Of a stretch of 22,117 nt of DNA, positions 1,461 through 22,020 are shown one piece after another. Source of the DNA: Catajapyx aquilonaris (Eukaryota); assembly GCA_000934665.2 (NCBI GenBank), contig KZ538306.1:124001-146117 (forward strand), given 5' to 3'. The position numbers were made by a program, and so were the translations under genes. Within the stretch, counting starts at the first letter, position 1. Each line of letters starts with the position of its first letter. The notes under the pieces are model-generated. The model ran no database searches. It had not been told where the DNA came from and worked only from the letters and a program-made list of their open reading frames with translations.

Positions 1461-3966
1461 TTACACAGAAATGCTTCCCTCCCTAAATTTGGTCGAACCA
1501 ATGAGAGCATTAACCATAACACTTTTTCCTGATGCATACTGTTCCCTTGCAGCCTTGAGAGTCTTCTCGATGTCATCTCCACGTCTCAGAAGGAAGCCCT
1601 TTCCTTCAAACGCATCCACAACCTTGTGGTAATCACAATGCTGGAAAATAATTAGAGAAATCAATTAAATAGAAGGATAGGCAGGGTGGGATTTAAAAAA
1701 AACATATCTCACCCCTAAGCGGCATGCAACGTCACTTCCAAAAATGGGGACTTGTTCCCTGGCAATCTGCATCCAAGCGGCATCGTTCCCGACAATGGAC
1801 AACACAGGTGCCTTGTGTCGCAAGTACGTGTCGTACTCCACCACGCTGTACCCGCAGGAGCCATCACCGTACACTATCCACACCTCTGAGTCTGGACGAG
1901 CAGTCTTGGCTCCAAGAGCAAAACCAGCGCCGACACCAAGTGTGCCAAACGCACCCGGATCTAACCACTGGAGAGGACCTCTTGGTCTGGTGGGATAAAA
2001 TATGTCATGGCTGGTGTTCGATACAGCTTAGGATATGAAATAATCAGACATCGCAGAAGCCCTGCACATTAACAAAAATACCTGAGAATGTACGCTGCAG
2101 TCCCGACAAAATCTCCACCGTCCGCAACTAAGATTGCATTGTCCGGTAATTGCTTATCCAACTCAAACAGAATTTTCATTGGGTTTAAATGCTCCTCTGT
2201 CGGCTGCTCTGCCAGCTGAGAATTACAAACACGGGTTAAAACTGAGCTGAATATGTTTTTTAAAAAAAGTAAAAATTGACGAACCTCCTCGTTGTGCTTC
2301 TGCTTCACTTTATCTTGCTCTCGAAGCATTTCAATCCACTCTTGATCCACTTTGAAGTTCATGAGCTGTGCGGACAACTCGGTCAAAAATGTTCCGACAT
2401 CCGCCTGCACTGCCAGGTTCGGAGACCAGAAGATACCTGAGTTCTGGCCAGGAAAGGAATATTTAAGAACAGGAAGATCCTCATGCTGCTTCGATTAGCA
2501 TTGTATATGCAGTCAAATATTGTACATATTATTTATAATAATTACTTTGTAAAGCTGCTCCTTGTTCCTATTGATTGCCACAATCTTCGCCTTCTTGGAT
2601 AGCGATCGTCCATATGACAACCTGAAGTCACACACCGAGCCTGCCAGAATCACCAAATCGGCTTCCTTCAAGGCCAACTTCCGCTGATGAAAAATCTGTA
2701 TTGGACTTGCGGCGCCGAGTAGTCCGCGACTCATCCCACCAAGGAAGGTTGGAAGGCCCAGAGACGATACTGAGCGCTTGATTGTATCGACAGGAACAGG
2801 CGGCAGGACTGCTTGGCTACCCAACACTAGTATGGGCTTTCGGGCTTGAGACAACATCTCGGCACACTTCTGAACTGAAATGTTACAGTACACAACAGTT
2901 GGTACGAGACGCAACATTTTATGAGACTTACCAGTGTCAGTCGGTGGCATTGGAATATTCAGTGGATACGGGTTGATAATCTGCTCTTCCCAGGCACCGG
3001 CAAACACATTGTCACAATAATTTTGGAGGTACCTAGAAAAATAATTTATACATCTTAATTAACGCCAGAATCGATGCAAAATGAGCTGTTAATGTGTTCG
3101 TACTGACCAGTGGATCAATTTAGATCTTAGGCTGCCCTTATTAGGCGGGACTTCCTTTTGCAGCATTTCGTATGGGTAGAGGATATCAACAGGCAACTCC
3201 AGGAAAACGGGTCCTGAAAAATGTGGTCTTGTTACGCACACGTCGAATCGTACACGATTGTGTTAATACCCGGTGTTCCCGACTGGGCAACGTGCATCAG
3301 TTTGAGCACAGTAGGCACAATGTCGCGTATGCAGGTGACAGTCGCACACTCCTTGCAGAGCGACCGAAAGAGAGACATCTGGTCTATGTCCTGCAGGGCG
3401 CCACGTCCTTTCAGTATGTTCGGTGCGGCTCCACCTAAACAATACCATTTTTCAGCAATTACTGGTACTTTTCTCCATAGGTACACCCACCAATGATTAA
3501 AACAGGTGATTCAGCCATCTGTGCATTTTTAACAGCCGTTATTGTGTTGGTAAGACCTGGACCAGCTGTAACGGCAGCCACTCCCACACCACCAGACAAC
3601 CTTGCAACCGCATCTGCAGCAAATACAGCAGTTACCTGCAAAAACAATGAGCATTTATCCAAACATGCAAATTACACGCAATTACTTTTAGGTACGAGCC
3701 AAACCTCATGCCTCGTGTCGATCACTTTGATCCCGATCTTCTCCGCAGCAACCAAAATTGGCGATATGTGACCTCCGACTAGGGTAAAGATGTACTTAAC
3801 TCCATGTACTTTTAGAGCCTCCGCAACAATCTCGCCTCCGTGCCTCTTGGACGTTCTGTCCGGCTGTAAAATCATAACAAGAAGCGCCATTAGTGCGATG
3901 TCATCACTGACATATACGCTAATAATTTACATGCGAATATAATATGCGATGTACAAAAATACACAT
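1461..3966 (-). CDS. ILVBL: 2-hydroxyacyl-CoA lyase 2 / acetolactate-synthase-like TPP-dependent enzyme, 11 coding exons
   Basis: Exons 3966-3931, 3863-3705, 3635-3491, 3434-3270, 3213-3108, 3032-2932, 2874-2546, 2443-2285, 2215-2082, 1986-1713 and 1640-1461. All 10 introns are GT-AG and phase-compatible. Motifs: [78 protein letters not shown]-binding GDG...GND, C-terminal FREGSISV. Exon 1 and the start codon are the least certain part. Confidence 0.95.
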
Positions 3967-7944: not shown

Positions 7945-8901
7945 ACTTCGAAGTCACGCGCGGTGCACCATCTATACTAACGGTTTTTTGCCACCATTTA
8001 ATTTTTATTGCAATATTATCAGTGCATTTGGAGGAATTAATAATTATTATTGACACTGGATTTGGGATTTTACTGTTTAGTACACAAAAAGGAGCAAGCA
8101 AACACACTGCACAGAATCTCCAATTATCAGCAAGGCACTACAGTAAACAAGCTCAGGAGCTTGAGACTTTATTACGTAAAATTATATTTACTGTGAATTA
8201 CATTTTTAAACCCTTTAAATTTTTACGAAATTTTAAATTACATTTAAAAATTACATACACTTCTTTTGTTCTCTCAAAGTACTAATAACAAGGATCAAAC
8301 TTATTTGTACTTTCGTGTTCGGGTCAACAACCGCATATAATATTATGTAAACCAGTTTAATATATTTTATACGTATTACAATGTGATCTTTTGGCTTATA
8401 ATGTCATCTGCAATGGTAACAACCGACCCTGAGCCTTCTCACACAAATCCGGGGACATAAATTAATCTTGTTTACTGCCGACTTGTGCTTGGTTACATAA
8501 CTGGATGGGAAGTCCAGGGGCACTGCATATGTGACGACACATCATGCAGGAAATATTATGTGCAATAGTATGTACTAGTAGCGGGGACTAGTTGTCCAAT
8601 TTTAGCAACACTGCTTGGCCCACCCCTCCAACTTGGACGTAGTACGATAGGCCCCTACCAGTTGGCGCACAGGCTGGCCCTCTGCGCACGTTGGTGATGA
8701 GTCACCGCGTGGACAAAGCCCACCAAGGTGTGTCCCACCCTCTCTGACCGCTCTATGTCCTCTAATTGTTGAAGGGTGAAGGTGAAATGTCTGGTAACTT
8801 CCACCTGTAGGCAATGAGTCAACACTGACATACAAGCAGACGGAGAGAATAAGGGGATTAGTAGTATGATAATGATAATGAGAGAAAAATCCTTCCTCCA
8901 G

Positions 8902-10096
8902 GAGAGGAGGAGCCTCCAGGGGTCAACTACTTCTCCAGACTCCCAGTGGAGATGAAGCTGCTGATTTTCTCGTACCTGAGTCCGTACGACCTGGTGTTCC
9001 GGGCACAGAGAGTGTGCAAGGAGTGGGAGAGTCTGACCTGGTACGTCCGACTGACCCCTTGGGACAAGTACCACCTGTGCGGGGCTCGCGAGGAGACCGG
9101 CATCACCTGGGAGTCTGTGACCCAGCTGGTCCAGAGGTCACCCGGCCTGAAGGAGCTCCTTCTGATGCGGTTCTCCCGAGGAGGCGACCGGATCCTGGAG
9201 ACCCTCGCGCACACCACGGACCAGCTGGAGGACCTGTACCTGGACAGGGTGACCATCAGCCAAGAGTCGGTTGACCTCCTGGCTCGAAGCTGCCCCAATC
9301 TGAAGAGGGTCACCCTGAAGGCCTGCCACACCACTTGCAACCTTTTGGACCTGACCGCCATCAGCCAGTGCCCGCTTCTGGAGGTCATGGTCATCGACGA
9401 CCCCTACCATAACCTGCGTCTTCCCGAAGAGTGGTCCGGACAGGTGAAGCAACTGGATGTTGCCGGGATGTTCATCGCGGACTGGGACATAAAGAACATG
9501 TTCAGGAGCAAGCTGGGAGAGTCGTTGAGGACAGTGAGACTCAACTTGTCGTGCGTGACGTGCGGGTTCACCTCTCTGTTGAGCATGTTTCGTCTGGAGA
9601 GCCTGGACATTGTCAACTGTCACCACCAGCTGACGGACGAGGCAAGTGCTTGGCCACCATTCGGAAGATCTTTATACATTCCAACATTGTCTAATTTTCT
9701 TCTTCATTTGGACCATAGGGTCTCCTCCAGTTTCCGGGATGGATTTTGTTGAACCTGCGCCAGCTTCGACTGTATCTGACCGACACTAAGGTGACCTCCA
9801 AGGGGATGAGGCGATTCCTGACCAGCATCTGGCAGTTCATGCCCAGACTGGAGTGGCTTGACCTGTCTTGGTCTCCGATTGACAAGAAGGGACTTAAGGC
9901 ATTGGGAAAGACCTACCCGATGCTGAGGCATCTGACCTTGCGTCATTGCCCCAAGTTGGCCCCAAGGATGCTGAGGAAGTACTTGAAAGGTGCGACCAAC
10001 CTGGAGGTACTGGAGGTCATAGGAGTTCCTGGGGTCACCAAGAAGGTCGCTACGGAACTGGAGGAGCTCAGTCCCGGAGTGAAGGTCCGGTTCTGA
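8902..10096 (+). CDS. F-box/leucine-rich-repeat (FBXL-type) protein; first coding exon uncertain (candidate 8697-8727, MSHRVDKAHQ)
   Basis: Exon 8902-9641 has an F-box (FSRLPVEMKLLIFSYLSPYDLVFRAQRVCKEWESL) and cysteine-containing LRRs (SPGLKELLL, CPNLKRVTLKAC, CPLLEVMVI). A GC-AG intron at 9642-9718 joins it to exon 9719-10096 with more LRRs (MPRLEWLDLSWS, YPMLRHLTLRHCPKL). Confidence 0.88.
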
Positions 10097-10253: not shown

Positions 10254-10715
10254 CTACTTTTTTTCGTGGCCGATCCAGCCTCCGGGTTTGCATGTCCTGT
10301 GTCTGAGGCAGGTGTCGTAACAGCATTTGTCCGGTCCTGGACAGTCTGCGTCGTTACCGCATGGTTGAGGGTCGTACTGGGGCCAAAATGGCATGCAAAA
10401 CGGTTGCACAGGTGGACACAAACCCATTTTCCATCCTGAGGGAGACAAAAGTATAGTATTCTCATTTTTTGGGGGGGACCAAACAATGAGAATGTATTTA
10501 CCTGAGTCATTACTTGATGACCCTTGGGTTGTTGTTTCTGGAGCACTTGTGGTGGTGGCAGGGGTTGGTTCAGCACCGCAGCAGAAATACTGTCCAGCAG
10601 GAGTCACACACCAGTACATGCAATCGTCTCCAAGTGTCCCATCTGGCAATCCGGACACCACCAGGACTATTGCAGCAGCAAATGTCCAAAATTTTGGCCA
10701 GCTGTCGTCTGCCAT
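10254..10715 (-). CDS. Crustin-like secreted WAP (four-disulphide core) peptide, 2 coding exons
   Basis: Exons 10715-10502 and 10435-10254, with a 66-bp GT-AG intron. Signal peptide, then the crustin Cys-rich motif CMYWCVTPAGQYFCC, a Thr/Ser-rich linker, and an 8-Cys WAP domain KMGLCPPVQPFC...PCGNDADCPGPDKCCYDTCLRHRTCK. Confidence 0.88.
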   Translation of the reverse strand: MADDSWPKFWTFAAAIVLVVSGLPDGTLGDDCMYWCVTPAGQYFCCGAEPTPATTTSAPETTTQGSSSNDSGKYILIVWSPPKNENTILLSPSGWKMGLCPPVQPFCMPFWPQYDPQPCGNDADCPGPDKCCYDTCLRHRTCKPGGWIGHEKK

Positions 10716-11976
10716 CCTTTTTTCGTTACAATCTTTTGGAAAGTATAAAGTTGTAACATTGCAATGTGAAGATAATGTAGCTCAAACAACGTACCTGTGT
10801 TTTGTTGCCATCACACCTGAATCGAATGGAGTTCTATAGTAGCCTTCTTTTGTGACAAGGTACTAATATAGCTTACGTCAATAGAAGGACGACGTAGTTG
10901 ACATTGGAGCTTCACAAACACAGATTCCGGGTATGTCCTGATATACAGGCGACCTGAAATAAACTTTTGTTGCTTTCCGCGCAATGTGTGATAGACACCT
11001 CAAGGAGGCTTTGGTTCGAGTTGAATGATCAACAGATGCAACAAAGCCATTATGTTGTAATCACGTTTATAGCATGGAATAAAGATGATTAATTCTCACA
11101 CGAGAGCAGGATTCGCCAATTACTTAAACTTGAAACACGAGAAGTGCACAAAGTTTAAAAACTTTTACAAACTATCGTCATTATTCATGATCCGGATGAG
11201 AAAATTGCGACACAATACAGAGGGAAGCAATGTTGTGTGACAATGACAATATATTACCGTCAGCTGTACTGCATTGTATTGTATTGTAATAAGCTGTATC
11301 CGCTACATGCCCACGAGCTTCCCCATTTGCCAACATGAGATATTATTTGCATAGTACAATTAAAAACGGTAGATTTTTTATCACTTTCAATGTCAAGCTC
11401 GCAAGACATTTACCTTAAAAAAAATCTCTCTGTTTCTGTACTGAAGGTAACTTACCCATGGAGTAACTACTGGAGTAACTTGTTAACAAACAAGTTACCC
11501 AGCGAATGAGAAGCAACTCTTATCCTTTTCTTCCTCATGCTGTGACCTTCTACATGCGCCTTTCCAGCTCCATATCTGGTGTACTTGGATTCATCAACTT
11601 ATACCCCGGAGCAAGTTGTTCATTATTTGCTCCCCGGTGCAAATATTTGATGAAGCCTTCCCATGAAGGCTATAATTATATAGTCCCATTGAAACTCAGA
11701 GTTGGGTGCATCACGAATTTCATATTATTTCCCCCCCTCTTCTTTCCATGCTTCAACATAATGTTACAGAAAGACTACATGGATTAAATTTACCGGGACA
11801 ATACAACGTCACGTCGTTCCAATTTCCTCACTAAAAGTTTTCGTTTTAAAAACGATTGTGACAGGACATATGAGGTTTTTCAAAAAAATTGCGGTTGCCG
11901 GCCGGATGTGATGCTTTTTCTTTTCTTATGAGTTGTATGGTTCTTCTGGTGTGTCCTTTTGCTTTCTCTTTTTTAT

Positions 11977-13749
11977 TTAGCAGCGGTGTGTGATGAAGGT
12001 GGAGATGGGGAAGCTCTTCCTCATGCCCAGGCACTTCTCCCTGTCGATGAAGAGGCTGTTGGCCTTGACCTGTATGTCGTGCTCCAGGTCGCTTCGGGCC
12101 TTCAGCATCTGCTGGTGGGTGGCCTCTGCCTCCCTCAGCTTCCTCTGCAGCTGGTCTATGGAGCAGTTGATGTCGTACACCTCCTGGACCAGGTTGGTGT
12201 AGGCTGGATCGCGGCACAGCTCCACGCAAGGACGGTGCATCCTGTTCTCAAGGCGTGTCTGGGCCACCTGGACAACAAAAAAACGACACATATGAAGTAT
12301 ATATATATATAAAAAGGACTGAACAAGTTCCAGTGAACTCACCTGGAGCGGGGCCGCCTTGTCCATGATGGCCTTCCTGAGCACCTCCATGTTCTTCTCG
12401 ATGTCGAAGATCTCCAGGTTGAGCTTGTGCAGGTACATCTGCAGGTTGCTCTTGGCCTCCATGGTCTCCCTGACCCTCTGGGCAAGGGCGTCGTTCGTGT
12501 TGGTCCATGCCTGCCAGACGTCGTTGAAGGCAGACCCGATGGAGTGGTCCACGTTGGTCCGGATGTGCATCGAGTTGGCCCTCTCGGTCTGGGACCTCTG
12601 GATGTTGGTGAAGGAGAAGTCGGCCCAGGTGTCAGGGATGCTGATGTTCGGGTCCAGCGTCTCGATCCCGTGTCGGAAAGCGATGCCCTTCGAGTTGTTG
12701 TTCAGCTCCAGGCAGGTCACGTCGATACCAACAGCCACCTCCTTGTTGCTAAGGTCTCTCTCCAGCTCGTGCCTTTACATAGGTTAGAGGGTTAGGATCT
12801 GTATCCACCGAATCTGTCCAGAAGAATATTACCTGGCGGCCCTGAGGAGTCCCAACTGGCACTCGAGGCTGTCCAGCATCCTCCTGAGCTTGTCCTGCCA
12901 GCATCTGATGAGGTCCACCTCCCTCAGCAGTGCCTGTTCAACCTTGTCGTGCACCTTGTCTATCCCCTCTCGGCTCTCCCTCTGGTACAGACACTCCTGG
13001 GCGATGTGCAAAGGTCCGTCCAGCTCCTTGATGGCCCTCTGGAGAGCATCGCGAGTGTCCATCAGCCTGTGGGTCTCGGCCACGTTGCTGTCCAGCTCAT
13101 CCGCCAGGTCGTTCTTCCACTGGACAACGTCGCTGACACGCTCGGACAGACGCCTCGTGGACTCCCTCTGGCTACGGTGGACATCGCAGTCACGCATCAG
13201 GTTCACAGACTCGCCTCTGACCTATGGTGACAATGATTTTAAAAAATTGGTGACAGCAATCTCACGTTATGTTGGCCACCATGAACACTTTGTTAAAATT
13301 GTTTACAAAACAATTAGTTCTAATTGTTGGTGTAATTGTTGCCGGAAGGTCACCTTCTCTGAGATCATCCTGGTGTTCTTGGAGTTGCAGAACTGGTTGA
13401 CGTTGTTCTGCATCCAGTCTGCGGGTGTGTACCGTGTGTACAGGGCGGTTCGGGATGCGTGTGCAGGGTTGATGTTGAACCCTGTGACTAAGTTGGGGAA
13501 CCGGATGGGTCCACAGACGCCACCGTGGGCAGGGTATCCGGCGTCGAACATCTTGGACATCATGGGCAGTCCACATACCGATGAGACGTCGTGGGGCTGA
13601 GGGGTCAAGGTGTGCCGCCATGGGAGTGACCTGAGGGCATTGCTTGTGAATGGCCTCTGTACTGCGGGCATTGGACCCTGTGGCTCCTTGCAAGGGCAGC
13701 TCCAGCTGGCACATGGCCCGTTGGCCACCCGGACGCAGTTGCTTGACAT
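11977..13749 (-). CDS. TEKT3: Tektin (tektin-3/5-like), 4 coding exons
   Basis: Exons 13749-13354, 13221-12833, 12772-12343 and 12267-11977, with GT-AG introns of 132, 60 and 75 bp. Motifs: SLPWR, LYTRYTPADW, ECLYQRESREGIDKVHD, VAQTRLENR, tektin nonapeptide RPCVELCRD, VKANSLFIDREKC. The frame stays open upstream to an acceptor at 13845, so the N-terminus may be longer. Confidence 0.93.
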
Positions 13750-14219: not shown

Positions 14220-14550
14220 AACATTTAAATAAAATATTAATATGAAGTCACCATTGTTGTCGTTTAAAAGCAGGTCGCCAGGATATTTTTAATGGTAAGA
14301 TATACAAGGATTTCCTGTAATAAAAAATTACTCATGTCAGTCATGTGGGGCGAAATAAAACGATGTACTGTTCATTTACTTGTTAATTGTTTATTGGCCA
14401 GATCTTTTTATAAAAATTAGGTGTATACACAATAAATTGTGCGAAAATTGAGTTTCACACTTAATAACAATATTTGTTTAACTAATGGCTAATGAGTTAT
14501 GTTTGTTCATACAGTATAGGCTATAGACCAAATATTTTCAGTATAGACTA

Positions 14551-14996
14551 TTAATATGAAAATCCCTCCTCCTCCTCCTCCTCCTCCTTTTTCTTCGGTT
14601 TCTCCTTCTTATTTGAACTCTTCTTTTTGTCCGTTGTGTCACCAGTGGCTGCTGCTGCTGCTCCTCCTGTTTTCTCTTCAGATGAGCTGCTGGTCACTTC
14701 CGTAAAATTGGAGACCCAGAAGGGAAATATAAATTTCGAGCTGGCTCCTCTCCAAAATGCGTGAGGATGCACATATGAGGGACCCATCAGAGGCAGTCCT
14801 GGAGGTCCCCAAGTATCAAGCAGGCCTAAACCATATTGTGGCACGGGATCTGAGTAGGAACATAGAACGTCTGCCGGAAAAAAAAATGGGATTACAGTCA
14901 TAGTCTGGGTGTAAAGCAAAATTATAAGTATTATTATTGTACCGTACCTTGGCTGGCGAACAATCCAAGTAATGAGAAGAATAGGAACGGTAACAT
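14551..14996 (-). CDS. Orphan small secreted protein (122 aa): Gly/Pro/aromatic N-half and Lys-rich then Glu-rich tail
   Basis: Exon 14996-14948 (MLPFLFFSLLGLFASQ, signal-peptide-like), 77-bp phase-1 intron (AG|GTACGG...TTTTCCGGCAG), exon 14870-14551 open to TAA. Confidence 0.7.
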
Positions 14997-15719
14997 TGCA
15001 GAAAACGTTGACAGTTTCTGTGGAGTTGACAGGATTTATGTAATTTTTATGCTTTGTAGTTTTGTTGATAGGATTCTGAACTGATGTACTACTGCGCATT
15101 AGAAAACATATCTTCAGCTTATTCCTACTAATTTAAAATAGCGGAATATATAATGTAGCAATAGTAATATTAACAGAGCCTATTTTTTGACAACTGTGAA
15201 GATACCCTCACATGTACCAAATAATATTCATGTGTACACATTGTTATTTTCAGGCATGAATTCATTGCCTGCCTGTAATAATGAGATTCAAGTACATACC
15301 TTGCAGCTATTCAGACTTCCGAGAATGAAATGGCAAGGGATATCTCCTACCCTTTAGCTTCATGGCCCGATAAAAACATAAAGGAGTTGCCAGGGGAGAT
15401 ATAATTAGGACATACTCATTCAAGCAGAGTAAGATAATAATAATTGTGCAACATCCTTTTGTCAAGAGGATTACTCACTGTAAGTACTTGCTGAAAAATG
15501 AGTTACGTAATATCAGAGCTGTCTCTGATTTAGTAAGTGAACAACTTGTGAATTTTGAAAGCATTTAATTCGATGTACGTACAACACATGTACTCCAGCC
15601 TCCAGCAACCAGCAACATTCATGATTCATAACATATTCATCCTTAGAAAATGCTGATGTCATTAGCATTGTTGATTTTTTTTTTTGACAGCTCACTGAAT
15701 GACCCTCGATTAAGAGATC

Positions 15720-16294
15720 TTAGTCCGTCTCGTCTTCAGTCTTTTTTCGTGGATCTTTCCAATTAGAAGGAGGTGACCACTTAGCAGGTGGTTTCCATGA
15801 CGGAGGAGGCACCCACCGAGAAGGTGGGACCCACTTGGAATTTGGGATCCAGGCAGGACTTGGGACCCACTCTCTATGAGGCATCCAGTCTGTCGGTGGG
15901 GCCCAGTTGGGATGAGGGGTCCAGTTCGGGTATGTTAGGCAACCCGGTGGGTGGCAAGGGATGGGTGGGATTTTACTTCTCCACTCTTCCATCTGTGGAT
16001 CGCTGTCTGAAATAAGCAATAATGTAACTCAATTTGGACCAAAATTGAATGTAAAGTTCGGCTGTGAACTATTGCAATTAATTCTCCAAAAGGATAAGCA
16101 GACAAAAAACTGGTTGAAAATTTGCAAAATATGAATAATTGTTAAATCAAAATAGTATGAAATATTATGTAGATAGCATGTACTGTACCTATGAATGATG
16201 GCGACATGTAATAGAATGCTTCCGAAAGTAGTCCAAAATTCAGGAGGGCTGTTGCACATCCCAAAAGAAGACACCTGAAGGAATAAGTTGGCAT
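15720..16294 (-). CDS. Orphan small secreted protein (130 aa) with 10 tandem xxxWxP hexapeptide repeats
   Basis: Exon 16294-16189 (MPTYSFRCLLLGCATALLNFGLLSEA signal peptide, then FYYMSPSFI), 182-bp phase-1 intron (AG|GTACAG...TATTTCAG), exon 16006-15720. Possible 5'-UTR intron at 16356-16314. Confidence 0.78.
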
Positions 16295-17099
16295 GCTGTC
16301 GGTGCAACCTGATCTGTAAAGCAATAATTCAGCTTAAAAAGGGTGTGACGATTCACCTATAGGACACGGGTACTACAGTAGTAATTTTTCGGCAGGAAAG
16401 TGAAATATGCTAATTATTAATATTGTATTTGATTGTGATCAGCGTATGACTTTCCCGCGGTTGACACTGTGGTATTTTTTAAATAAGATTCATAATGAGC
16501 GTAATTTTCTCCACATATGTGGTACTCCTCATTATGAACTGTAATATTATTGAGTACCGGTAGTAAAAATGTTAGTTTCCATTAAGAATATGCACACTAT
16601 ACCTCAGCTGTGTCGAGCCTCAACGTAGTTTAGGAATGTTATTTTTTATCGCAAAAGGTTGGAAGTAATAATAGTCGCCTGAGATATGCCTAATGACTTG
16701 ATAGTCGGGCTACATATTTGCGCTGACACAATACGTGGGGGCATATTATGATCACTTTTGTCAAGTGGCAATAAAAATAATATGAGCTATGCATAGCCCC
16801 GTGAAACAAGTCTTGCTTCACATAACTGCTGCGTACTATCACACGCAAAAAGAATCTCGCAGGGGGAAATACTGTTATCTTGCAAAAATGCAAGGTCATG
16901 GATCTGCCAACTAATATATAGCCATGTGTCGTGTAATTCCGGGCTCGTGGCCTTGGAAAGCCTTTTTATTTGGCGGCTTCCTCGTTATACTTTGCATAAC
17001 TGGCACAATAAATTTTTTCTGGTGATTTGCTGGACAAAGGCAGACAAACAATTCTTACTCTGTAAGGGAAAGTTTGTTTCTCTGTCCACGGCAACCGGT

Positions 17100-17258
17100 T
17101 GCAATGAAAACAGGCCCTTCGAAGGACTGGCAGTAGTGGGAGGGGGGGGGGGTGCACGTTAAAGATCCCCAGAGTGGCCAAATTTCCAGGAGGAGGACCA
17201 CCCCCTGGCGTCGGTGTTGAGCCTTATAGAGGCAGAAATAGGCCGACGTTAAGCCCCA
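17100..17258 (+). mobile_element. SINE remnant with a Deu/Nin-like core resembling the 3' half of tick Ruka SINEs
   Basis: GGTGCACGTTAAAGATCCCCAG-AGTGGCCAAATTTCC...GGCGTC...GACGTTAAGCCCCA follows the motif order I recall for Ruka-type SINE 3' halves. No tRNA-derived head was found. Confidence 0.55.
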
Positions 17259-17572
17259 CTGAACACAGGTGGGCAAAAATGCCCAAAATATATCCCAGTA
17301 ATAATTATTCCTGGGAAAATGAAAAAAGTGTTGCGAGGTAGAGGATGCCGGCTAATCGGCACGACACAAATGCCATTCTGGGTTTTTTGGTCGGCAAATT
17401 CCCACCACAAAAAAGCACCCCAAAAATATAACGCATTTGGCAGCCACTCCCCGGTCCCTGACCTGGAGTCTTTTCCGGTAGCAACTTATTTTTGGAAGGA
17501 GGGTGGGAGTGAGTGAGGGCCTTTGATAGTGCCGTTGTGTGTGGCTCGCTAGTTGAGAAGAAAAAGTTGAAG

Positions 17573-19319: not shown

Positions 19320-19371
19320 ATGTGCGAACCTCCCGCCCATTCGGCTTATGCCTCAGGGCGGTGGAAATAAA

Positions 19372-19418
<47 letters not shown>
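19320..19418 (+). mobile_element. Probable 3' end of a non-LTR retroelement with an (ATT)n tail
   Basis: GC-rich short stem (CCGCCC...GGGCGG), then AATAAA, then ~15 ATT units (19373-19418) that abut the broken end of the ACAD9 fragment. Confidence 0.5.
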
Positions 19419-19419
<1 letters not shown>

Positions 19420-19735
19420 TGCAGGCATACTGTATATCATCACAGCAATGTCCGATGGCCGCCGTAGCACCATATGGCACTCGGCAACTTCGGCTCCATG
19501 ATACGCAAGCACCTGCTCCACGCCGAACTCCAGTCGTGCCACGCAGTACTCCAGCATCTTCCCGTATTTCTGCAAGTACACACATCGTAATACCCGATCA
19601 TTTCAACCAGCATTGTCTTACCTTCAGGGACGGATGGACAAACCCATCCAAGCCCATGTCCACCTTAGGGTTGTCCGAATGGTGCCATATTCACTGCACT
19701 GTGTCCCGCATCTTTTTAACGTCATCCTGCAGTTC
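19417..19735 (-). pseudogene. ACAD9: Two-exon fragment of acyl-CoA dehydrogenase 9 / enigma (C-terminal region), disabled
   Basis: Exon 19735-19622 (ELQDDVKKMRDTVQ*IWHHSDNPKVDMGLDGFVHPSLK), 52-bp GT-AG intron, exon 19569-19417 (KYGKMLEYCVARLEFGVEQVLAYHGAEVAECHMVLRRPSDIAVMIYSMPAV). This resembles the ACAD9 VHPSL...LKRVANI...YGMTAVLSRAS segment. In-frame TGA at 19693-19691, truncated at the microsatellite, and no catalytic exons before the neighbouring gene. Confidence 0.75.
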
Positions 19736-19992: not shown

Positions 19993-21477
19993 CTAATGTC
20001 TTATGAGAATACCACGTGTCTTGAGTAATTTACCACACCAATTACATTCAAATTGCTGCTCATTTGAGTGTTCACATTTGTGAGCCTTCAAATTTGCAGG
20101 GGAACTAAAACTTTTGGAGCAAGTGCTGCACTTGCAAAAGCTACCTTGCGCATGTGTCAATCTGTGTTTATGCAAATGATGAGGGGAAATAAAGCATTTG
20201 CTACACTCAATGCACATGAATGGTCTCTCCCCCGTGTGACGTCTGATATGAATTTTCAATTTGCTCTTAGAAGAGAGCACTTTATTGCAAGTGACACATT
20301 TTTGTTCATTTCCTCTTGTTTTGTAACCATGAAACTTTTGTCTGTGACGAGTTAGATTCCGTTCGCTTGCACATTTACGTGAGCAATCTGGGCAACTGAT
20401 CATGGACGTGTCTTCCCCATGAAAACTTCTCATGTGATCCTGCAAACCAGATTTACTATCTGAGACTTTAGGGCAGTGTTTGCAAGCATACTTCTTCCTG
20501 TCATATGCACCACTTTCGTGTGCTTTCATGTGGTCTTTCAGACCTTCCCTCAGTTTGAATCCCCTTCCACATTTATCACAAATGAAAGGAATGTCATCTG
20601 AATGCGCCAATAGCTTGTGACGCTGCGCCGATGCTTTTGAACTCAGCCTCTTTGAACACAGGGTACACTTGAATGGCTTCTCACCCGTGTGACTCAGCTC
20701 ATGTACAGCAAGTTTAGCTGTGTCAAAGCATACTTTACCACAATATTTGCACATGTACGTTTTCCCAATGTTATGGGCACGCTTTTTGTGCCTACCCAAA
20801 TGATTTGAATTATAAAATTTCTCAGAACATAGTTCACAAGTGTATACCTTGTCACAGATGTGGTGAAACCTTACATGATTATTGAAGTTCTTCTTGGTTT
20901 TCAGAATTTTGTCACAAAATGGACAGGACACAGATGCATGTGATCCACTGCTGCTACAGAGACTACCTGTCCTATCTCCAAGTAATTTACTGAGGGCTTC
21001 ATTCAAACCTTCTCCTGTATGGTCCTTCTGATGATTTTTGAAATTGTACGGGGACTTGAAGGACTTATTGCACTTGTCACACTTGAAGGGCCTGTCATCA
21101 GAGTGAATTGTCATATGATTAGACAGGGCTGAGGGACTTCCAAATGATCTGTCACACCGTTCACAAGTTAATGACCTCTGACATGACTGCGCCTGAACAT
21201 GAATACTGAGACAGCCCCTGTTTTTAAATACTCTCCCACAGTGTACACAGTCGAGAGATTTGTCCTTGGTGGTCACTGATTTATGACATAACTGGGCATA
21301 AACATGCTTAGTGAGATTGCTCCTGTTTGAAAATACTTTCCTACAGTGTTCACATATGAGATGCTCCTTCCTCCAAAACTTTAAATACTCCACCTTGCTA
21401 GAGGTATTCCCACTATCAGCAAAGGATAGCAACAGTGGCTCTTTCATCTTAACCTTCTCACCTGGTAATGCACAATC
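19993..21477 (-). CDS. Multi-C2H2 zinc-finger protein, large terminal exon with 15 fingers (last one incomplete)
   Basis: Repeated CxxC-x12-H-x3-5-H/C units with HTGEKPF, HTGERPF and HSDDRPF linkers. Acceptor TTTTTTTCAG ends at 21478. Upstream exon(s) not resolved. Confidence 0.9.
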   Translation of the reverse strand, partial: DCALPGEKVKMKEPLLLSFADSGNTSSKVEYLKFWRKEHLICEHCRKVFSNRSNLTKHVYAQLCHKSVTTKDKSLDCVHCGRVFKNRGCLSIHVQAQSCQRSLTCERCDRSFGSPSALSNHMTIHSDDRPFKCDKCNKSFKSPYNFKNHQKDHTGEGLNEALSKLLGDRTGSLCSSSGSHASVSCPFCDKILKTKKNFNNHVRFHHICDKVYTCELCSEKFYNSNHLGRHKKRAHNIGKTYMCKYCGKVCFDTAKLAVHELSHTGEKPFKCTLCSKRLSSKASAQRHKLLAHSDDIPFICDKCGRGFKLREGLKDHMKAHESGAYDRKKYACKHCPKVSDSKSGLQDHMRSFHGEDTSMISCPDCSRKCASERNLTRHRQKFHGYKTRGNEQKCVTCNKVLSSKSKLKIHIRRHTGERPFMCIECSKCFISPHHLHKHRLTHAQGSFCKCSTCSKSFSSPANLKAHKCEHSNEQQFECNWCGKLLKTRGILIRH

Positions 21478-22020
21478 CTGAAAAAAAGATAGAAATACAT
21501 TGTAACCTCGATTTGACAGGTGTGGATGATCCTTGCAATGCCAAAAAAAAAGACTAAAAATAAAAGTCCAAAGTAATGTCAATATGGCTTGCAAAGAAAG
21601 AAAATCAACATACTTTTTCTAGAAGACAAACTAAAAATCTATCCTAAGTTTCATTATTGTGATTAAACCTGATTGAAAAACAGCATGTACGGTAGTTCAT
21701 TAAAAACCCCCTGATTATTTTATTACACTGTACCTGACTGTACTCGTGATTACGCTATGCAACAAAGTGTTCACTACCTCCTACTGCTCAACACGGAACA
21801 TTGCTCTCCAACAACAGAGTGTTTCCACACAATGTTGTGTATCGCGAGGTTTTATGAAAACTTTTCTCATGTCCGATTCAGGAAGTGCACGGGATGTCAA
21901 TTGATGCAATGCCACTCAATTTTTCAACCCCGTATTACGACCAGCTATACGCGAGCCCTCTCACTCAATTTTTTCATTATCATTGTCTTCCTCATTGTAG
22001 ATTTTGCCAAATTTTGGTGC

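Follow-up and report, generated by a model that had tools for sequence, protein, structure and literature searches.

Secreted tandem-repeat proteins rich in Pro are common in arthropods, in which they are found in cuticle, in glues, and in gland products; strictly spaced Trp as the basis of a repeat is unusual. Several described systems come close in one respect or another. Among the low-complexity cuticular families of insects, CPLCP is Pro rich, and CPLCW, reported from mosquitoes only, is marked by one invariant Trp (PMC12426002). Pvfp-1, a foot protein of the mussel Perna viridis, is a tandem-repeat adhesive in which modified Trp replaces DOPA (PMC4275877). Indolicidin, tritrpticin, and PR-39 are Trp- and Pro-rich extended peptides with no regular secondary structure (PMC6017362). 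Finally, C-mannosylation of Trp follows the motif W-x-x-W/C (PMC8433626).

The window analyzed here is the whole 22,117-nucleotide stretch of the Catajapyx aquilonaris genome at positions 124,001 to 146,117 of contig KZ538306.1. Its minus strand carries a gene for a protein with ten exactly spaced Trp-containing hexads. Like CPLCP and CPLCW, this is a putatively secreted, low-complexity arthropod protein marked by Pro or Trp, but those two families, by their descriptions in PMC12426002, are defined by conserved regions of their own, and none of the searches below brought up a member of either. With Pvfp-1, it has in common a Pro-rich tandem repeat and putative secretion, and in Pvfp-1, Trp is the functional sticky residue. 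This likeness is one of description, however: the mollusc repeat is a decapeptide whose Trp is C-mannosylated and hydroxylated (PMC4275877), whereas our protein has no W-x-x-W/C site at all. By the motif as given in PMC8433626, the absence of such sites, together with the absence of any Pfam domain, also distinguishes the protein from thrombospondin type-1 repeats and from ladders of C-mannosylated Trp. Like the Trp/Pro antimicrobial peptides, it is rich in both residues and has basic residues next to Trp in its C-terminal half; those peptides, as described in PMC6017362, are short, strongly cationic, and cut from larger precursors, whereas this protein has about 100 residues, is near neutral, and is strictly periodic.

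Gene model and transcript evidence

A single 540-base contig, from the Logan contigs of public run X1, aligns to the window without a mismatch or gap in three blocks on the minus strand, 16707-16603, 16313-16189, and 16006-15697. Its two joints skip 182 and 289 bases; the skipped segments end in CT..AC when read on the plus strand and are thus GT..AG introns in the direction of the gene. X1, aligned over 14300-17300, is the sole public run with the stretch and contained 0.46 of the words sampled. The library type of X1 is unrecorded, no run containing the stretch is recorded as RNA, and the X1 contigs convey neither transcript level, strand, nor true ends. Because two canonical introns are removed here, and because another X1 contig removes the intron of a neighboring gene, the contig is best read as cDNA derived; alternatively, an intron-free contig may come from a processed DNA copy. 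On the cDNA reading, the gene is real, transcribed, and spliced, with three exons.

Exon 1 (16603..16707, minus strand; contig positions 1-105) is a noncoding 5' leader without an ATG. It begins where the contig begins, and the true transcript start may be further upstream. Intron 1 (16314..16602, minus strand) has 289 bases with GT..AG ends, its joint linking 16313 to 16603. Exon 2 (16189..16313, minus strand) consists of 19 leader bases, the start codon at 16294-16292, 35 codons in all, and the first base of a split codon. That codon, G|AC for Asp, is interrupted by intron 2 (16007..16188, minus strand), a 182-base, phase 1 intron with GT..AG ends, at which the contig has 125 bases on the shorter side. 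Exon 3 (15697..16006, minus strand, to the contig limit) supplies the remaining coding sequence, the TAA stop codon at 15722-15720, and the beginning of the 3' UTR. In the joined transcript, the first ATG stands at mRNA position 125 (window position 16294) with an in-frame TGA upstream, and the frame that it opens runs for 130 codons to that TAA. On the minus strand, 16294-16190 encodes the 35-residue N terminus (P0002) and 16004-15723 encodes the 94 residues that hold the repeat (P0001).

A preliminary description of this stretch, made from its letters alone, had predicted an intron at 16188-16007 and had named a spliced transcript across it as the first thing to look for. The X1 contig, of unrecorded library type, is such a spliced contig, and its joint at 16006|16189 places the predicted intron exactly to the base, given GT..AG ends at the joints and no mismatch. 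The description had further proposed that a signal exon is spliced to a repeat exon, which stands; its two-exon layout does not, as the contig adds a noncoding 5' exon upstream and brings the count to three.

The predicted protein and its hexad array

The N terminus has the classical layout of a signal peptide: one Arg, a 16-residue hydrophobic core, and then SEA, with a Kyte-Doolittle peak of 2.24 at residues 10-18. From hydropathy and a reading by hand, the putative signal peptide covers residues 1-26 (16217..16294, minus strand). By the -3/-1 rule, cleavage would fall after SEA, and the product is probably secreted. The predicted mature protein (residues 27-130) would have about 104 residues, with 25% Pro, 10.6% Trp, a pI of 7.0, and one N-x-T sequon; residues 27-122 have a net charge of +2. 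Ahead of the array, the translation contains a CHPPGC motif (residues 53-58; 15939..15956, minus strand), whose cysteines are the sole two outside the signal region and could possibly close a small disulfide loop. Behind the array lies a C-terminal tail (residues 121-130; 15723..15752, minus strand) that consists of a basic RKK site followed by an acidic end (TEDETD). The signal-peptide exon, the CHPPGC motif, and the acidic tail had all been noted beforehand; the RKK site, also behind the array, is an addition to that picture.

By translation and period count, the ten-hexad array covers residues 61-120 (P0001 residues 25-84; 15753..15932, minus strand). Trp occupies residues 64, 70, and so on to 118, and the nine successive spacings are all exactly 6. 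When the hexads are stacked, column 4 is W in 10/10 and column 6 is P in 9/10, which bears out the original observation that Trp recurs ten times at every sixth residue with Pro at W+2 in nine units. Column 1 is P in 5/10 and column 2 is P in 4/10, while columns 3 and 5 vary freely. When P0001 was shuffled 200,000 times, no period-6 W run exceeded 6 (a length reached in 9 shuffles), against the 10 observed, and an analytic estimate by counting puts the chance of a ten-W run at ~5e-11. No other period-6 W run of at least 4 occurs in the six frames of the window.

Charge changes along the array. Hexads 1-5 have a net charge of -1 and contain 2 His, whereas hexads 6-10 have a net charge of +4 and carry K or R at W-1 or W+1 in every unit; the drift toward basic charge reported earlier is thus present in the count. 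This asymmetry bears on the idea that the protein is the precursor of a Trp/Pro-rich host-defense peptide. On this idea, processing would take off the signal and the acidic tail that follows RKK, and the Trp residues in the basic C-terminal half of the array would enter the interfaces of microbial membranes in the manner of indolicidin-like extended Trp-rich peptides. The order of parts suits such a precursor, with a +4 half array containing five Trp, then the RKK site, and then the acidic tail. Some families with a WAP domain are antimicrobial, and a WAP-domain ORF (PF00095, E 5.8e-05) lies about 5 kb away; a tektin gene, however, separates it from our gene, so there is no real defense cluster. 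Extended antimicrobial peptides rich in Trp and Pro form an established class, and Trp has a preference for the interface of membranes (PMC6017362). The high positive charge of that class, as described in the same source, is nevertheless missing here: with a pI of 7.0 for the mature protein, a net +2 over residues 27-122, and a charge of +4 reached in hexads 6-10 only, the protein is far less cationic than the peptides of PMC6017362. Moreover, the peptide released would have about 95 residues, there is a single basic processing site, and the array is neutral to acidic in its N-terminal half. We regard the host-defense role as quite unlikely.

Divergence and age of the repeat DNA

Tandem Repeats Finder detected no period-18 array in this DNA, and the ten 18-base units share on average just 9.76/18 bases. 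At the 13 unconstrained positions, those not fixed by TGG and CC, identity is 39.7%, where composition alone would give 26.8%. All four synonyms (CCT, CCA, CCG, and CCC) occur among the 18 Pro codons of the array. Since the 18-base units have diverged to this extent, the array is not a young minisatellite, as the preliminary description had already concluded. To judge from its units, the array is old, with W and P kept in this frame while the remainder drifted. The retention of W and P in units only 9.76/18 alike, with all four Pro synonyms in use, points to selection acting on the protein in this frame and away from a recent DNA expansion.

These values also bear on a deflationary explanation, under which the gene is young and lineage restricted and has little or no specific function, an old internal repeat having expanded once and its W and P having been kept by descent or weak constraint. 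Such a gene would be expected to look much as this one does in other respects: neither the word-index search nor the HMMER search found a homologue, the protein is of low complexity and unstructured in prediction, and its transcript occurs in one run only. It is the codons that are difficult for this explanation. TGG, the single codon for Trp, is kept in 10/10 units although the unconstrained positions have fallen to 39.7% identity, and Pro is kept through synonymous codons of all four kinds. The canonical splice sites, first-ATG start, and signal-like N terminus likewise speak for a working gene. Ten retained single-codon Trp residues are hard to square with a functionless young gene, and we consider this explanation unlikely.

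Neighboring genes and other features of the window

Several other genes in the window can be recognized from domains. Tektin-3-like exons occupy 11977-13221 on the minus strand (PF03148, E 1.2e-79), and the best matches of the tektin ORF are to insects such as Diploptera, Cloeon, Gryllus, Timema, and Blattella. Also on the minus strand are the exons of a thiamine-pyrophosphate enzyme resembling acetolactate synthase (1665-3058), a long C2H2 zinc-finger ORF (19993-21618), and the WAP four-disulfide-core ORF mentioned above (10254-10781; 23.7 bits for PF00095, cut-off 20.8). The last of these has a hydrophobic N-terminal stretch and may encode a small secreted protein of the protease-inhibitor or defense type. 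The plus strand carries an F-box and leucine-rich-repeat ORF (8865-10096; PF12937, E 1.1e-09), for which none of 960 word-sharing candidates qualified as a homologue at E <= 1e-5. Neither the Rfam scan nor the tRNA scan found anything in the window.

The adjacent downstream gene, at 14386-14996 on the minus strand, is small and is likewise represented by an X1 contig, which removes a 77-base GT..AG intron (14947-14871) and has an AATAAA near its end. This gene has a 16-residue signal-like exon and a phase 1 split GAC codon exactly as in the hexad gene. The 105 residues encoded after the intron (P0012) begin with a part containing aromatic residues and Pro, continue with poly-Ala and a Lys-rich stretch, and end in eight Glu; the sole Pfam match of P0012 is a sub-threshold one of the tail to Ribosomal_60s (22.8 bits, cut-off 28.1). 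We considered paralogy between the two genes and rejected it, exon design alone being in common (BLASTP E 2.7). The arrangement gives a hint, no more, of a local pair of secreted low-complexity genes.

Two further features are repetitive. At 17152-17263, several short X1 contigs pile up to a summed word depth of 139; on both sides, their loose ends continue into unrelated sequence, the pattern that a dispersed, transcribed repeat element would give. At 19371-19500, a trinucleotide microsatellite would be translated as poly-Ile from one strand and as poly-Leu from the other.

Family and structure searches

The preliminary description had recognized no family, and database searches gave the same result. 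An hmmscan of P0001 against Pfam-A at E values up to 1 returned 0 families, and hence no chitin-binding, cuticle, or thrombospondin type-1 repeat domain, and an NCBIfam search also returned 0 families. A search of PDB sequences gave one match at chance level only (E 0.38, to a 4E-binding protein), and the ESM Atlas gave no usable match. In the literature outside subscription journals, we found no published description of a hexad-Trp repeat or family. A word-index search for homologues of P0001 yielded no candidate, and the F-box ORF of the window, run as a control, was blank as well. In the same collection, the tektin ORF as a control retrieved 183 proteins at E <= 1e-10, the best only 50-52% identical. 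With one control blank and the nearest tektin 52% identical, the blank for P0001 says little about whether the gene is an orphan; at the distance of a 52% tektin, a fast-evolving repeat protein would escape detection.

Structure prediction had been proposed as a check on the shape of the array. AlphaFold2, run without an alignment, returned a low-confidence coil (pLDDT 52.1, pTM 0.14), in which the array has no secondary structure and a pLDDT of 44-59. This outcome is compatible with an extended, nonglobular chain and is silent on a polyproline-II (PPII) helix and on binding. A self-association model of three copies of P0001 residues 22-86 scored 0.03 against a mark of 0.32, a value that speaks neither for binding nor against it.

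W-x-P hexads in microbe-like surface proteins

A profile search for further (xxxWxP)n arrays, also suggested at the outset, did find them. A HMMER scan of 1.84 billion representatives returned 9 proteins, all weak matches, at E <= 1e-3 (best, 1.8e-10), and seven of the nine (P0003-P0008 and P0010) have exact period-6 Trp runs of their own, 3 to 11 units long. Across these seven, Pro stands at W+2 of between 8/12 and 8/8 Trp residues. The W-x-P hexad is therefore not unique to the Catajapyx gene. The remaining two of the nine lack W-x-P and were set aside: one is a WD40-type protein, matched by chance on its W-containing blades, and the other, P0011, which has 23 Trp at period 6 without Pro, resembles a translated DNA repeat.

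The host proteins of these arrays have features of the cell surface. As read from their sequences, the N termini of P0005, P0006, P0007, and P0008 are signal, lipoprotein, or twin-arginine leaders, P0004 has a hydrophobic N-terminal anchor, and P0003 ends in a membrane anchor that follows a PGF-pre-PGF domain (TIGR04213); P0008 also has DUF6517. No Pfam or NCBIfam model covers the arrays of P0003-P0008 and P0010. Six of the seven hosts have an export or anchoring sequence (signal, lipoprotein, Tat, or anchor at the N terminus or else an anchor at the C terminus), and the W-x-P hexad motif thus appears to recur in extracytoplasmic proteins. The Catajapyx protein has the same combination of features, namely exact period-6 Trp (a run of 10) with Pro at W+2 (9/10) in a putative extracytoplasmic protein.

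The relation between these arrays and ours seems to lie in the repeat unit. In BLASTP, our protein has a local identity of 49-51% to P0003 and 39% to P0004, and the W-x-P-P form is common to all three; the alignments run through many shifted registers, all of them within the arrays, and nothing aligns outside. Collinear similarity outside the repeat unit, by which common descent would be recognized, was thus not found in the comparison with P0003 and P0004. Unlike our protein, moreover, P0003-P0008 and P0010 carry their arrays within long multidomain hosts, for example, with PGF-pre-PGF or DUF6517, and several of the microbe-like arrays have Gly where ours has Pro. As the alignments slide through many registers and do so only inside the arrays, the repeat unit would have arisen more than once. 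The likeness to the microbial arrays is one of repeat units rather than shown homology, and convergence is the simplest reading. An AlphaFold model of P0005 from its single sequence had a pLDDT of 36.6, with the array again without structure.

We also ran a degenerate DNA pattern for six W-x-P hexads over genome and viral contigs. The W frame was open in 165 of the 254 matches listed, and in 1 of these 254, it formed an ORF that reached 150 residues or more, exceeded those of the other five frames, and had units <80% identical. Most of the other matches listed are near-perfect tandem DNA repeats, open in several frames, and the scan cannot serve as a census of W-x-P proteins.

From the protein matches, W-x-P hexad arrays may be an undescribed repeat class. 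A much broader proposal would be that the W-x-P(-P/G) hexad is an unrecognized convergent solution, an extended rod with a one-sided Trp comb that grips polysaccharide or other surfaces and is used in extracytoplasmic proteins of animals, archaea, bacteria, and possibly large viruses. We give this proposal only a slim chance of being correct.

Possible function of the Trp array

For the Catajapyx protein itself, the function that we favor, tentatively and at somewhat short of an even chance, is that of an extracellular matrix or adhesive protein, a multivalent "sticker" in cuticle, in a glue or coat, or in a gland secretion. Our preference comes from the make-up of the unit, which matches the multivalent sticker proteins of glues and matrices, and from the precedent of Pvfp-1. 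It also agrees with the presence next door of another small low-complexity gene with a signal-like exon, as in a local set of secreted proteins of the material type, and with the recurrence of W-x-P hexads in extracytoplasmic proteins; that no chitin-binding or cuticle domain matched the protein counts against it. We infer secretion, extended shape, one-sidedness, and the function as a whole. The ten-hexad array would be too Pro rich for a globule and would stay extended, in a PPII or strand-like form; an extended chain is the default expectation since Pro at two to four of every six positions is incompatible with helices and with a compact core. In either conformation, all ten indole rings would point to one side of this chain because 6 is a multiple of both the 3-residue turn of PPII and the 2-residue alternation of a strand. 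With the usual rise of 3.1-3.3 Å per residue, successive Trp residues would be 18.6-19.8 Å (about 19-20 Å) apart, and the whole would form a rod or comb some 170 Å long.

The stickers on this rod would be of several kinds. Besides the Trp comb, there would be adjacent Pro-Pro steps, open to Trp-Pro CH/pi contacts; in many proline-binding domains, such a Pro-Pro step is the partner recognized by aromatic residues. Hexads 6-10, with Lys or Arg next to every Trp, could add cation-pi contacts, and cohesion of this type would be limited to the C-terminal half, given that the mature protein as a whole is near neutral. The many weak contacts so made would be with a polysaccharide, for instance chitin, or else with partner proteins and other copies of the protein itself.

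Contact with polysaccharide could also take a more specific form, closer to the preliminary description, in which the protein acts as a ruler for chitin or another glycan and its one-sided Trp comb stacks on the sugar rings of a single polysaccharide chain. The exact spacing of the ten Trp residues is what such a ruler would need, the 19- to 20-Å interval expected of an extended chain is near the length of four sugar units, and an arthropod origin, as the tektin matches indicate, would put chitin within reach. The agreement is rough, however; with the usual dimensions of the sugar unit, a Trp spacing of about 19 to 20 Å fits four units of chitin only roughly. Flat-face carbohydrate-binding modules hold their aromatic residues on a folded scaffold, whereas AlphaFold predicted no fold for our array, and no chitin-binding or cuticle family of Pfam matched the protein. 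We think a dedicated glycan ruler improbable, and the matrix or adhesive role, which asks for many weak contacts of any of these kinds, remains the reading that we prefer.

What the gene would mean depends on which of these accounts is right. As it stands, the protein is a variant within the familiar Pro-rich secreted repeat proteins, one whose exact Trp hexad matches no family model, and if it is instead a lineage-specific filler protein, then the finding is an ordinary one. If the Trp comb binds chitin or drives self-association, then the protein would represent a minimal, domain-free design for multivalent aromatic adhesion, and it would offer a simple model peptide for Trp-Pro and cation-pi cohesion. 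Should the broader proposal of a convergent Trp-comb class prove true, this gene would be the first member of the class from an animal and also the cleanest, since its product has ten units and lacks any other domain. That the same hexad occurs in surface proteins of microbes, unrelated to this one, is a hint of a function for the spacing itself.
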